From: a virus
Length of the DNA: 64,000 nucleotides
Virus record (IMG/VR): IMGVR_UViG_3300032053_000047
Location: 1-64,000 of that record
Reading direction: 5' to 3' (one strand)
Position 1 is the stretch's first letter; each line of letters starts with the position of its first letter. The notes under the pieces are model-generated. The model was not told where the DNA came from. It ran no database searches and saw only the letters and a list, made by a program, of their open reading frames with translations. Shown here piece by piece: positions 2,996-23,375 of this stretch. The position numbers were made by a program, and so were the translations under genes.

Positions 2996-3177
2996 TAATC
3001 TTGGAAGTCGGCGATGAGCGCGTAGTAAGGCACGGCCACGGCAGGTACACGTTTGGCAATAAACAGACCGCGACTGGGATTGATCCCGCGCTTGGTAGGG
3101 CGATAGAAGTGCTTGTGACTGAACGTGATGAGGCGGTAAAACGAGCGGATAAATTGGAAGTTGATGAAACAAATTAG
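2992..3177 (+). CDS. hypothetical protein
   Basis: GTGA overlap with the upstream gene. Confidence 0.45.
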   Translation: MIILEVGDERVVRHGHGRYTFGNKQTATGIDPALGRAIEVLVTERDEAVKRADKLEVDETN

Positions 3178-3287
3178 CCGCAAGGCTGAAGCCGGGCTAT
3201 AAGAGAAAGAGAGAAAAGTAGCAAAAGAGAGAAAGAGAATTGACCGGAAAGAGGGTTGACAAAGCGAAAGAAGGGAAAGCCGATTGA

Positions 3288-3623
3288 ATGGCAATGAAAT
3301 GGCTGAAAAAGAAAACCGCGCGGCTGCTGTTGCGCTTCTTGCCGGAATACAGCATGGAAATACAGCGGCATGAAGACTGGCTACAACATCCAGGCGCGGA
3401 AACGTTCCGCGTTGTGCGCCGGTATTGCGGGGCAAGGCGGGTGGTTACTGAAATTGAATGCACGGGGTATGAAGGCGTCTTTGTGGCGACTAATGCCTTG
3501 CAGTTACAGTGTATGGAGCGAGAGGTAATTCTGCAAAAAGTACTCCCGGATTGGTATAAGCGATTGCTGCTAATGAAGTTCGGATATCCCGCCGACCATT
3601 TAGAGAAGGCGCGTCTGTCCTAG
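3288..3623 (+). CDS. hypothetical protein
   Basis: ORF in operon orientation. Confidence 0.5.
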   Translation: MAMKWLKKKTARLLLRFLPEYSMEIQRHEDWLQHPGAETFRVVRRYCGARRVVTEIECTGYEGVFVATNALQLQCMEREVILQKVLPDWYKRLLLMKFGYPADHLEKARLS

Positions 3624-3641
3624 ACGCCGCGCGGTACACTT
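3621..3641 (+). promoter_or_regulatory. putative late promoter motif, copy 1
   Basis: TAGACG-N8-TACACT; six intergenic copies in the window. Confidence 0.6.
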
Positions 3642-3656
3642 CGCCATAGTCCTACT

Positions 3657-4250
3657 ATGGTAACAGGTAGTATCCCAAAAAAGAACCCCTATAATATCAA
3701 GGCTTTAGGCGACATTTCTCCTGATCCGAAAAATGCAAATCGTGGGACTGAACGCGGGCTCGGGATGCTGGAGCAGTCCTTGCGCACATACGGCGCGGGC
3801 CGGTCGATCCTATGCGACCGTCATGGGGTCTGTATCGCAGGAAATAAAACGTTAGAACGGGCTGCTGATATCGGCATGGACGTGGAGGTAGTCCAGAGCG
3901 ACGGCAAGCGGCTCGTGGTGGTACAGCGGACCGACTTGGACTTGGCGGAAGGCGGGGCCGCGCGTGAACTGGCCTATGCCGACAACCGGGCGGGGCAGGT
4001 TGGACTCGACTGGGACCCGGCAGTACTGGCAGCGGACCTTGCGGCGGGGATCGACTTGGACAAGTTCTGGTTGCCGGGGGAAATGGAATTGATCGGGCCA
4101 GAAAAAGAGTCGGAACCGCTGGATGCTTCGCCCCAACTTGGCGCACTGGAATACCGGATCATCGTGACGTGCCGGGACGAAGAACATCATGCCGAAGTCT
4201 TGTCGATGCTTCAAAAAGAAGGGCTTGAATGCAAAGTTTTGATATCGTAG
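3657..4250 (+). CDS. ParB/Srx-like N-terminal domain protein
   Basis: PDPKNAN...SLRTYGAGRSILCD...IAGN...LAYADNR...WD. Confidence 0.75.
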   Translation: MVTGSIPKKNPYNIKALGDISPDPKNANRGTERGLGMLEQSLRTYGAGRSILCDRHGVCIAGNKTLERAADIGMDVEVVQSDGKRLVVVQRTDLDLAEGGAARELAYADNRAGQVGLDWDPAVLAADLAAGIDLDKFWLPGEMELIGPEKESEPLDASPQLGALEYRIIVTCRDEEHHAEVLSMLQKEGLECKVLIS

Positions 4251-20771: not shown

Positions 20772-21191
20772 ATGAAACAAATCTATATCGGCACATGGGC
20801 GCTTAGCTGGCGAAACGTTGACCTATATGGACGCGAAGAATACGGAGGACATGGCGATGTACTACCCAAGGACAAGGGCAATGCCAGACTCGAAATCTCT
20901 CTTGCGCCCAAAGAATGGGTTGATATTCTCTTTGCCCTGTTACATGAAACAGAAGAATTTCTATTAAACGAAGCTGGAGTAAGCTTCAGGAAGTTGCGCG
21001 ATTGTTCAAACGATACAGGGAATAGATACTTTCAGTTTTCCCATCAGGAACTTACTTCAATCAACGCCCATCAAGCCGACTTCATCGCAGCCTGTGAAGA
21101 CGCCGTGAAGAAGGCCTGGCGTGAGTTTAGGAAAAAACTCATGCCCCCTAAAGGCAAGAAGATTGCAAAAAAGAAAAAATCCACCAAATGA
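20772..21191 (+). CDS. hypothetical protein with HExxE metalloprotease-like motif
   Basis: ALLHETEE. Confidence 0.55.
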   Translation: MKQIYIGTWALSWRNVDLYGREEYGGHGDVLPKDKGNARLEISLAPKEWVDILFALLHETEEFLLNEAGVSFRKLRDCSNDTGNRYFQFSHQELTSINAHQADFIAACEDAVKKAWREFRKKLMPPKGKKIAKKKKSTK

Positions 21192-21463
21192 CTGCAACAG
21201 AAATTAGCGCACTCAATGCGACCGTAGACAAAATCCTCGGGGTTCTACAGGGTGAACCCGGCGAAACGGGACTTGTCAGTGAAGTTAAGGCTATTGGGGT
21301 AGAACTCGCTCAGCAAGGAGTCCGCCTTGAAATACACCTAACGGCACACAAGGAATGCGATACTAAAAAAGAAACTCGCATGTGGGATATATTTAAGACC
21401 ATACTTATTCCGCTTGCCGCCGGACTAGTTAGCGCAGCCCTCGTAGTATGGGGTCTAAAATGA
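21188..21463 (+). CDS. small protein with C-terminal TM helix (holin-like)
   Basis: ILIPLAAGLVSAALVVWGL. Confidence 0.55.
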   Translation: MTATEISALNATVDKILGVLQGEPGETGLVSEVKAIGVELAQQGVRLEIHLTAHKECDTKKETRMWDIFKTILIPLAAGLVSAALVVWGLK

Positions 21464-23337
21464 GCGCCCAGCGGGGTCGCCCCAACCTGCCGCCCGACGT
21501 GACGCGCGCGCAACAGGAACTTATCCGGGCATACCGAAATGCTACCCGGCGGCTAGAACGGCAACTCTCAGGAGCCGCCCTTACGGATTTCCAGCGGTTC
21601 CGAATCACCGAACAGCTTCAACAGATCCGAGTTATCATTGCAGCCCTTAATCAACAGGCCCAGGATGCCGCACAGCGCATGATCGGCCCATCCTATAGGG
21701 TAGGGATCAAACTGTCCGCGGACGCCCTTGTACGGGCTGGTATCGAAGTGAATATGGGCAATGTATTGGCTACTGAGGCTATTGCGGTTGTTGCCGATCA
21801 AATGGCGATGGATCTTATTGCTGCGAATGCCAGTTTGGAAATACAGGCGCGGCGGTTTTTGCGGCTTACGCAACAAAAGTTGCTCACTGAACAACAGATT
21901 AACCAAGGGATCGCCCGAGGGATTATCGAAGGTGAAACCCGGAAACAGGTGAGCGACCGGCTGTTGAAGCAGCTTAAGGGGAAGATGGAAGAAGGCGCAC
22001 GGATCGTTATCAAGTGCAAGGATGGCAAACTCCGGTCCTACGACCCGGCCCAATATGCCGAACTTGTAGCACGCACGCGCACGCGGGAAGCCGTTACGCA
22101 GGGGACGATCCGCACCGGCATGGACTATGAAGTCTACCTATTTCAGGTATCCGTGCATTCCGGGGCGTGTGAGATGTGTATCCCGTTTCAGGGCAAAGTG
22201 TTTGCTATAGTTGACGGTACGGGGTATCCGATACTAAAGGAAAGCCCCCCGTTTCATCCGAACTGCATTTTGCCGGAAACGCCTGTCTTTGCCCCTGGTA
22301 AGCGGGCCGCATTTGTTGCCGCCTACAACGGCCCGGTAATCGATATTATTCTGTCCAATTCCGCAAGGGTGTCCGTCACCCCGAATCACATGCTCCTGAC
22401 CCCGACCGGGTTCGCTTTTGCAAAGGATCTTTGCGAGGGACAAGAGGTACTCTATAGCACCGCCTTTGAGAATGTAGTATTTGGACACCCAAATAATAAC
22501 AACCGTCCATCCTTCATCGCGGATATAGTCGAATCGCTTTCTAAAACGAGCGGCATGTGCTCCAGTAGCGTGCCAGCTACCTCCGAAGATTTCCACGGCG
22601 ATGGGCGGTTCGTTAATAGCGACATCAATGTTATATGGGCCAATGGCCTTTTGCGAAGTAATATCGAATCCAAATCGGGCGAGGTGCCGAGCGAGAACGA
22701 TTTCGATGGGACTGACATTGCTCTGTTTGGTCTCACGTGTTGTCGCACGACGGCAAAGATGCTCAAAACTTTGGCGCTTGCCGCGGACGGCATCATGGGC
22801 GGCTTTCGTGATGGCTGCGCGGCCCTCTGGCCCCATCTTCGCCATGGCAATTTTGGTGGCTTCGCTTCCAGTACGCTTCTTAATTTTACCCCTGCGGAGA
22901 ATTCCATCAATGACGCACTGAATTGTTCCGAATTCACGCATCAATTCTCCTACACTCTCTCCGGCACAATAGCGCGAGCAAATCTCATTCGCGGGCAACA
23001 ACAGTCCCGGCCTTTGATTTCTCTTGATGCCCCGCCTTTTCAGGATGCCGTTAACATCAACGGGAAATTGTTTCTTGATTTCCTTAAACGGAATTCTAGC
23101 CAAATAGGCGTTGCACACGTCGTCTTTAAGGGAATTCGGCAATATTCTGGGCATGTCTATGATCTCCAAACTGATTCATCATTATACCTATGTAATGGCA
23201 TAGTATCAAGTAATTGCGGCCATGTCCTAACTGCCTTTATCCCCCGCGACGACGAACAAAACACCGCCCTGCGCCAGTTTTCCCACACCCGGGGGGGCGT
23301 TGCAGATTATGAGGAATACCAGGCCGCAATAGCTTAA
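21460..23337 (+). CDS. MuF/gp7-like minor head protein containing an intein
   Basis: YAELVARTRT, CEMCIPFQGK, PPFHPN|intein|CGH; splicing restores PPFHPNCGH. Confidence 0.88.
   Translation: MSAQRGRPNLPPDVTRAQQELIRAYRNATRRLERQLSGAALTDFQRFRITEQLQQIRVIIAALNQQAQDAAQRMIGPSYRVGIKLSADALVRAGIEVNMGNVLATEAIAVVADQMAMDLIAANASLEIQARRFLRLTQQKLLTEQQINQGIARGIIEGETRKQVSDRLLKQLKGKMEEGARIVIKCKDGKLRSYDPAQYAELVARTRTREAVTQGTIRTGMDYEVYLFQVSVHSGACEMCIPFQGKVFAIVDGTGYPILKESPPFHPNCILPETPVFAPGKRAAFVAAYNGPVIDIILSNSARVSVTPNHMLLTPTGFAFAKDLCEGQEVLYSTAFENVVFGHPNNNNRPSFIADIVESLSKTSGMCSSSVPATSEDFHGDGRFVNSDINVIWANGLLRSNIESKSGEVPSENDFDGTDIALFGLTCCRTTAKMLKTLALAADGIMGGFRDGCAALWPHLRHGNFGGFASSTLLNFTPAENSINDALNCSEFTHQFSYTLSGTIARANLIRGQQQSRPLISLDAPPFQDAVNINGKLFLDFLKRNSSQIGVAHVVFKGIRQYSGHVYDLQTDSSLYLCNGIVSSNCGHVLTAFIPRDDEQNTALRQFSHTRGGVADYEEYQAAIA
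22234..23154 (-). CDS. antisense DUF559/Vsr-like endonuclease with N-terminal DNA-binding repeats, nested in the intein
   Basis: SPIEIVL...IGPYNIDVA...IAVEIFGGSWH...RFDYIRDEGWTVVIIW; GGAG SD 9 nt before ATG 23154. Confidence 0.85.
   Translation of the reverse strand: MPRILPNSLKDDVCNAYLARIPFKEIKKQFPVDVNGILKRRGIKRNQRPGLLLPANEICSRYCAGESVGELMREFGTIQCVIDGILRRGKIKKRTGSEATKIAMAKMGPEGRAAITKAAHDAVRGKRQSFEHLCRRATTRETKQSNVSPIEIVLARHLARFGFDITSQKAIGPYNIDVAINEPPIAVEIFGGSWHATGAHAARFRKRFDYIRDEGWTVVIIWVSKYYILKGGAIEYLLSLAKILCKSEPGRGQEHVIRGDGHPCGIGQNNIDYRAVVGGNKCGPLTRGKDRRFRQNAVRMKRGAFL
22264..23214 (+). mobile_element. intein (317 aa)
   Basis: block A CILPETPV, block B VTPNH, block F HVYDLQT, block G NGIVSSN followed by Cys+1. 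Confidence 0.9.
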
Positions 23338-23346
23338 GCGGGTTTG

Positions 23347-23375
23347 TGGACAACTCAGGAAAGGTATGATATACT
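23347..23375 (+). promoter_or_regulatory. sigma70-type promoter
   Basis: TGGACA-17-TATACT with extended TGn. Confidence 0.65.

Follow-up and report, generated by a model that had tools for sequence, protein, structure and literature searches.

The window analysed here is a stretch of 64,000 nucleotides from an uncultured sediment virus (positions 1 to 64,000 of the IMG/VR record IMGVR_UViG_3300032053_000047; the complete record holds 72,989 bases and is rated 100% complete), and all coordinates refer to it. The window very probably carries a composite mobile element, formed by a class-1 intein at the HPN|C site of a MuF-like gene and by a Vsr-like homing endonuclease which is not an in-frame domain but has a gene of the free-standing type on the antisense strand of the same intein. 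The two proteins are read from the same bases; in the splicing blocks of the intein it is the sense frame that is under purifying selection, and in its middle the antisense frame.

The host gene (21448..23337, plus strand) was recognized as an open reading frame and by Pfam. Its product is a precursor of 629 amino acids which matches Phage_min_cap2 (E 8.9e-9) and Phage_Mu_F (E 6.7e-7), and it is thereby identified as a minor capsid (head morphogenesis) protein of the MuF or SPP1 gp7 type. The N-extein of 272 amino acids (21448..22263, plus strand) ends in ..PPFHPN and is contiguous up to HPN in alignment A3. It is followed by the intein (317 amino acids; 22264..23214, plus strand), which opens with the Cys codon TGC at 22264-22266, closes ..GHVYDLQTDSSLYLCNGIVSSN|CGH after 317 residues, and therefore has its terminal Asn317 in the AAT codon at 23212-23214 and a Cys in position +1. 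The C-extein of 40 amino acids (23215..23337, plus strand) begins CGHVLTAF, runs to the stop and aligns with the C(K/R/L/A)HVL.. of intein-less alleles. Intein-less MuF homologues, found with the N-extein as query, measure 308-319 amino acids and share 36-55% identity. All seven of these shorter homologues read ..HPNC(K/R/L/A)HVL.. in alignment A3 and lack the 317 residues, which indicates that the insert is an intein at the HPN|C site.

The conserved intein blocks, which a first-pass annotation made from the letters alone had placed at 22264-23214, are indeed present. They include Cys1, TPNH in block B, GHVYDLQT in block F, the ..SSN end with Asn317 and the +1 Cys, and the HINT fold is matched. 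The N-terminal splicing region (blocks A-B, intein residues 1-70; 22264..22473, plus strand) is modelled with a confidence score (pLDDT) of 83-98, and the C-terminal splicing region (blocks F-G, residues 280-317; 23101..23214, plus strand) with one of 92-97. Among relatives, T39, N41 and H42 of block B are invariant or nearly so, GHVYDLQT and NGIVSSN are conserved, and C...N occupies the boundary columns in 83 of 90 unique sequences, the other 7 being without it. The intein ends in SSN in 46 of 87 relatives and in xHN in some others.

The endonuclease gene (22234..23154, minus strand) encodes 306 amino acids followed by a stop. It runs from an ATG at 23154..23152 to a stop at 22236..22234, and would encode 311 amino acids if counted from the TTG at 23169. 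Since the antisense stop is the complement of an in-frame Leu codon (CTA, 22234-22236), the two frames are codon-in-register, and nuclease residue j shares its three bases with intein residue 298-j. The gene is single copy in the 72,989-base record. Its product has 142 homologues at E<=1e-3, the best with 56% identity; many of them carry PF18741 and helix-turn-helix (HTH) families, most of the close ones with a precomputed PF18741 match, and some are labelled 'very-short-patch-repair endonuclease' by the Joint Genome Institute. The protein itself matches PF18741 (REase_MTES_1575) with E 2e-9 and DUF559 weakly (Pfam E 0.052), and the NCBIfam vsr and DUF559 models also match weakly.

The structural model of the endonuclease has a mean pLDDT of 79.5. 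Its N-terminal half is helical and contains a predicted tandem HTH DNA-binding region (about residues 1-95; 22870..23154, minus strand), the nuclease domain occupies residues 145-272, and the predicted fold matches Vsr and I-Bth0305I. In the gene, the Vsr-like (PD-(D/E)xK-derived) nuclease domain, counted as residues 145-265, spans 22360..22722 on the minus strand. In alignment A1, the motifs YNID and VEIFGGxWH show D177 and H195 invariant and E188 nearly invariant; the likeness of these motifs to the Vsr-type motif was judged by eye only, and the last Asp of the EDxHD set is not clearly conserved. When the A1 profile was compared with solved structures at E<=1, it recovered the tandem-HTH structure 2lvs_A (5.9e-7), 3hrl (0.013) and Vsr 1cw0 (0.018), the remaining rows, such as stathmin, being noise. 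The nuclease domain alone recovered only 3hrl (0.088), and the I-Bth0305I structure 3r3p gave no sequence match with the profile at E<=1 or with the domain alone at E<=10. The earlier description of this frame as an HTH protein with a DUF559/Vsr-type nuclease is thus borne out by the PF18741 match, the homologues and the fold, and the DUF559/Vsr link, weak in the individual matches, belongs to a protein conserved in 104 related loci. The C-terminal tail (residues 266-306; 22237..22359, minus strand) mirrors intein blocks A-B and the last N-extein codons. It is modelled as disordered (pLDDT below 50), selection there acts on the sense frame, and since a stop cuts it short in 44 of the 104 loci, it is probably dispensable.

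These loci were collected with a profile of the nuclease and 19 homologues. In IMG/VR it gave 353 pattern matches, 341 of which were relatives, and 80 of the relatives were retained; in species genomes 24 of 92 matches were relatives, these genomes consisting of metagenome-assembled genomes of many phyla together with Streptomyces, Micromonospora and Ornatilinea. The sense intein protein, used as query in viral contigs, gave 10 pattern matches, none of them a relative. All 104 of the 104 loci keep the opposite strand free of stops along the full length (100%) of the nuclease match, and the register is 0 in each, so that the double open reading first noticed in the window holds throughout. The sense open reading frames measure 470-1151 amino acids, and nearly all of them read ..HPN|C..(intein)..N|C(R)C, which is the same MuF site. 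The element is 28-63% identical across loci from many phyla, and 103 of the 104 loci retain an unbroken nuclease frame across the folded domain. Within the overlap, the codons TTA, CTA and TCA are found in 0 of 25,060 sense codons, as compared to 1.86% in exteins.

In the window, the probability that the opposite frame would be open by chance is 3.9e-5 given the nuclease protein and phage codon usage, and 9.3e-9 given the intein protein; in-register antisense runs in the other long open reading frames of the window extend over merely 72-189 codons. Chance open frames were rejected on this basis (probability <=3.9e-5 for the window). The only one of the 104 loci with a broken nuclease frame is L066 (an IMG/VR contig, 3001-3882), where a 23-amino-acid frame remains on the nuclease strand and the sense strand is open over 713 amino acids; it is a candidate for a decaying endonuclease within a still intact intein.

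The strand under selection was assessed on 90 unique sequences, after 15 of 105 had been dropped as exact duplicates. They were aligned in the sense frame, which biases the comparison against a result of antisense selection. In the N-terminal splicing block the diversity is 0.574 at sense position 3 against 0.473 at position 1, and in the C-terminal block it is 0.554 against 0.405. The three middle segments show the opposite order, with 0.53, 0.65 and 0.68 at sense position 1 (which is antisense position 3) against 0.38, 0.50 and 0.56 at sense position 3. The exteins behave as the splicing blocks do, sense position 3 being the most variable. The amino-acid diversity of the middle is also lower in the antisense reading (e.g., 0.449 against 0.621 in the sense reading). 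This switch in codon position shows that the splicing blocks are selected as an intein and the middle as a nuclease.

The evidence also supports the view of the first-pass annotation that the middle of the sense strand is filler; it is a filler in which stops are avoided. The remark of that annotation that the middle is without a LAGLIDADG or HNH motif agrees with the family searches, in which neither family was matched in the sense intein and no Pfam family fell on the sense middle. The sense model has a pLDDT below 50 over 106 of 317 residues, including 128-159 and 189-258, and fold searches with it return HINT domains only, over about 106 aligned residues.

The signals for expression of the antisense gene appear to be embedded in the codons of blocks F and G. 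The start codon ATG (23152..23154, minus strand) is the complement of the block-F His codon CAT, and a GGAG Shine-Dalgarno sequence (23164..23167, minus strand), 9 nucleotides before the ATG, is the complement of the block-F Leu codon CTC and of the first base, C, of the Gln codon CAA. Both of these correspondences had been noted at first sight and the coordinates hold. A sigma-70-type promoter-like site, TTGATA-17-TATAAT (11 of 12 consensus positions; 23181..23209, minus strand), lies 26 nucleotides upstream of the ATG within the codons of blocks F-G. Its -10 element is the complement of Ser-Leu-Tyr (TCA TTA TAC) and its -35 element that of Val-Ser-Ser (GTA TCA AGT).

Codon choice at these positions is strongly biased across relatives. 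Of the 73 Leu codons at the block-F position, 66 are CTC, a codon that makes up 24.6% in exteins (binomial p 1.5e-32), and the block-F His is CAT in 48 of 58, against a background of 43% (p 6e-10). Consequently, the antisense start column of the 90 unique sequences reads ATG in 48 and GTG in 10 (His CAT 48, CAC 10). The promoter position was examined in 87 related loci, that is, the 90 unique sequences minus 3 with fewer than 20 codons in the F-G segment. The exact TTGACA-17-TATAAT is present in 22, a match of 11/12 in 19 and one of 10/12 in 8; a match of at least 11/12 is thus found in 41 of 87 loci, as compared to 0.32% of resamples in which synonymous codons were redrawn from the extein usage of each locus. 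In the SSN subfamily the proportion rises to 39 of 46. The promoter bases are fixed (Leu TTA 39, Ser TCA 35 and 41), whereas neighbouring third positions are free (e.g., Thr is ACT in 20, ACA in 20, ACG in 18 and ACC in 10), which argues for selection on these bases and not for recent common descent. The latter was rejected as the cause of the conserved promoter and Shine-Dalgarno bases, the neighbouring synonymous sites being saturated.

It may be, and is put forward tentatively from the sequence, that blocks F-G double as a complete expression cassette, with sigma-70 promoter, Shine-Dalgarno sequence and start codon held in the constrained synonymous codons of S-L-Y, L-S-S, D-L-Q and His. 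The exact cassette pattern occurs in at least 116 stretches of IMG/VR; of 81 matches in 80 loci, 4 are intein blocks F-G and 1 is a false positive. The rest resemble the starts of ordinary genes, so that the pattern lacks specificity for the element and provides no count of it.

Relatives of the antisense gene are also found in cultured phages. A tblastn search of GenBank phages returned 121 records, including Salmonella (62), Pseudomonas (15), Gordonia (11) and Klebsiella (8), and where a listed row has a feature annotated, the match faces a gene for head morphogenesis or of MuF type, or one for a hypothetical protein. The 11 Gordonia records carry their relatives antisense in MuF-like genes. 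Six records were examined, namely E. coli phage Snoke, Gordonia phage Vivi2, two Jersey-type Salmonella phages, and a Pseudomonas and a Klebsiella phage. Both frames are open and in register in all six. The antisense gene is annotated in none of them, the MuF gene alone being called, which implies that gene callers systematically miss a nuclease gene; the record of Snoke does annotate the intein. Phages of the Jersey and Snoke type keep a GAGG-type Shine-Dalgarno sequence and the His-codon start. In many Salmonella phages of the Jersey type the match is confined to nuclease residues 85-225 or 85-277, which suggests truncated or decaying copies. Several phage records label the MuF gene 'NAD+--asparagine ADP-ribosyltransferase'.

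The following course of events is envisaged. The endonuclease would be transcribed by the host RNA polymerase from the internal promoter, antisense to the late MuF message. In co-infecting phages it would bind MuF alleles that lack the intein and cut them close to the HPN|C codons; repair of the break would copy the intein along with the endonuclease gene. The mirror reading of the endonuclease gene would serve as a stop-free linker, translated within the MuF precursor, and this linker would leave with the intein by protein splicing, restoring ..HPN-C.. in MuF.

Several points weigh against this interpretation. Expression, splicing and cleavage are steps that we infer from sequence. No RNA run containing the stretch was listed, which says nothing about expression either way. 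The Intein_splicing match in Pfam is weak (E 2.5e-4, 23.8 bits against a cut-off of 35.8); the 200-amino-acid middle interrupts the profile match. The penultimate residue of the intein is Ser316, the usual His being missing; inteins without a penultimate His are known to splice. The PF18741 match of the endonuclease, at 37.8 bits, falls 0.4 bits short of the gathering cut-off of 38.2. The related loci share ancestry, and counts across them are not independent events. No intein-less allele was seen near this phage, the nearest being 36-55% identical, and no contig joining across the intein was found in 3 metagenome DNA runs; recent mobility of this copy is therefore unsupported. As regards the cassette, a promoter match of at least 11/12 occurs in 0 of 18 loci of the xHN subfamily, and the site is weak (7-9/12) in the 6 examined cultured phages, which indicates that the promoter is not a general expression route. 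Finally, within the sense middle, residues 80-127 (22501-22644, plus strand) are modelled confidently (pLDDT 85-90), with a helix at 85-94 and strands at 98-103 and 121-126. This segment mirrors the catalytic core of the nuclease (nuclease residues 171-218), and its confident modelling may mean either that the HINT fold extends this far or that the alignment echoes the mirrored conservation. Invariance is seen at several sense residues (H111, G112, D113). Alignment A2 consists of 39 of the 83 clean-boundary loci and the window.

Other explanations of the antisense gene have also to be considered. It is unlikely that the endonuclease is expressed but domesticated, serving to exclude related phages, to degrade host DNA or to regulate, or that the antisense transcript mainly regulates MuF. 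The great spread and age of the element, with the low identities across many phyla given above, would suit such a role, as would the consensus promoter facing the late MuF gene, and the preprint 10.1101/2025.01.02.630785 describes vertical inheritance for most VSR-like cases. However, the nuclease is found inside the intein only, lying opposite a MuF-type gene in 104 of 104 loci and in every listed annotated GenBank row (121 records), as a homing partnership predicts. Moreover, intein-less alleles exist, and homing activity has been proven for I-Bth0305I, an enzyme that has the same fold and order of domains (PMC3239194).

It is distinctly improbable that the antisense frame is a relic, i.e., that a free-standing endonuclease gene landed in the intein, is now silent and stays open merely through constraint on the sense strand. 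Sense constraint alone predicts no avoidance of TTA, CTA and TCA, which is complete in the overlap (0 of 25,060 against 1.86% in exteins). The codon-position pattern and the lower amino-acid diversity show that, in the middle, the antisense protein is under purifying selection, the residues of the nuclease motifs are invariant, 103 of 104 frames are intact, and the codon bias of blocks F-G produces an ATG, a Shine-Dalgarno sequence and a promoter. These findings stand against the one locus of 104, L066, with its nuclease frame broken and its sense frame intact, the many Jersey-like Salmonella phages which match part of the nuclease only, and the statement in the same preprint that such a gene might turn into a pseudogene. 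That the sense middle is itself functional, as a new in-frame nuclease or DNA-binding domain, with the antisense frame as a by-product, is exceedingly improbable, since the confident residues 80-127 and the invariant H111, G112 and D113 that might favour it are set against the lack of any Pfam match, the pLDDT below 50 at 128-159 and 189-258, the return of HINT domains alone (about 106 aligned residues) in fold searches, the mirroring of the invariant sense residues by the nuclease motifs IAVEIF and YNID, and the greater variability of the sense reading.

A few further features of the locus can be mentioned. Among the 3 sediment metagenome runs, one, possibly the source, is identical and one, from another study, is near-identical over 21106-23337. 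Other contigs in these runs, with a depth of up to about 120, match islands at 22372-22415, 22567-22653 and 22758-22809 only, at 85-90% identity. The islands cover block B together with the nuclease strand EHVIR, and the core motifs of the nuclease; the contigs presumably represent related copies of this element, carried by other phages in the samples. A second promoter-like site, TGGACA-17-TATACT, with a TG before the -10 element and 10/12 consensus positions, lies just past the MuF stop (23347-23375, plus strand). About 340 nucleotides past the endonuclease stop there is a weak terminator-like hairpin (7 pairs, 3 of them G-C, then a T run; 21879-21895, minus strand), a possible end of the antisense transcript.

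The composite element proposed here can be compared with several known systems. The architecture is already described, first in 2025 for this arrangement. Full inteins with antisense VSR-like endonucleases were reported in actinophages by Gosselin, Arsenault and Gogarten (2025, bioRxiv 10.1101/2025.01.02.630785), with minor capsid proteins among the hosts. The first-pass annotation's idea of a dual-coding selfish element has gained comparative and structural support, but not as an arrangement without precedent. The architecture is the same as in the actinophage cases, whereas the present element comes from an uncultured sediment virus and its antisense frame begins in block F and crosses blocks B and A. 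Antisense LAGLIDADG endonucleases in inteins (Gorbalenya 1998; Gogarten 2002, both as cited in 10.1101/2025.01.02.630785) likewise lie opposite an intein and belong to another nuclease family with other hosts (dnaX, a SpoVR-like protein, an actinophage minor capsid protein). Beyond this preprint, literature searches found no other reports of antisense endonucleases in inteins.

In the fractured genes of Dassa et al. (2009, PMC2677866), a phage intein is likewise combined with an HTH/NUMOD and Vsr-like endonuclease gene located between the splicing halves. In those systems the host gene is split into two parts and the intein splices in trans. In the present element the sense frame runs on without a break, since the endonuclease gene lies inverted and avoids TTA, CTA and TCA codons. 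I-Bth0305I, the EDxHD prototype and an active homing enzyme (Taylor et al. 2011, PMC3239194), shows the same order of an N-terminal HTH/NUMOD pair followed by the nuclease. Its gene resides in a group I intron of recA, not in an intein, and its sequence similarity to the present nuclease is undetectable. The ShiLan insertion (Arsenault et al. 2025, PMC11855218) similarly hides an endonuclease in an alternative reading of an insert that is stop-free in the host frame. It is an HNH enzyme in a phage methylase, read out of frame on the same strand, and the insertion has neither a splicing domain nor a detectable ribosome-binding site; here, in contrast, an intact intein is combined with an antisense, in-register gene whose predicted Shine-Dalgarno sequence and promoter are clear.

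The present data extend what was found in print by a conserved double reading well outside actinophages, by the switch of the selected strand, and by the candidate promoter, Shine-Dalgarno and start cassette in blocks F-G. From the main text of 10.1101/2025.01.02.630785 the terms promoter, ribosom-, start codon and express- are all absent, nor was the spread to cultured phages of Salmonella, E. coli, Pseudomonas and Klebsiella found there.

Cases in which two proteins are encoded antisense to each other, in register and over a long stretch, are rare and as a rule met with doubt; the present case is supported by comparative data from more than 100 diverged loci. The element represents a living intermediate for models in which free-standing endonuclease genes colonise inteins and for models of the origin of split inteins ('fractured genes'). 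The embedded promoter, Shine-Dalgarno sequence and ATG offer a direct, testable answer to the question, raised in the 2025 papers, of how hidden endonucleases are expressed. If the cassette is functional, the host polymerase would express the selfish gene early, in antisense orientation to the late MuF message and without depending on it, and the cassette would have shaped the intein sequence, possibly including the change of the penultimate His to Ser, whose first base completes the -35 hexamer. Such an arrangement, if true, would amount to a three-layer code in which the intein protein, the endonuclease protein or its signals, and the promoter are written in about 60 base pairs.

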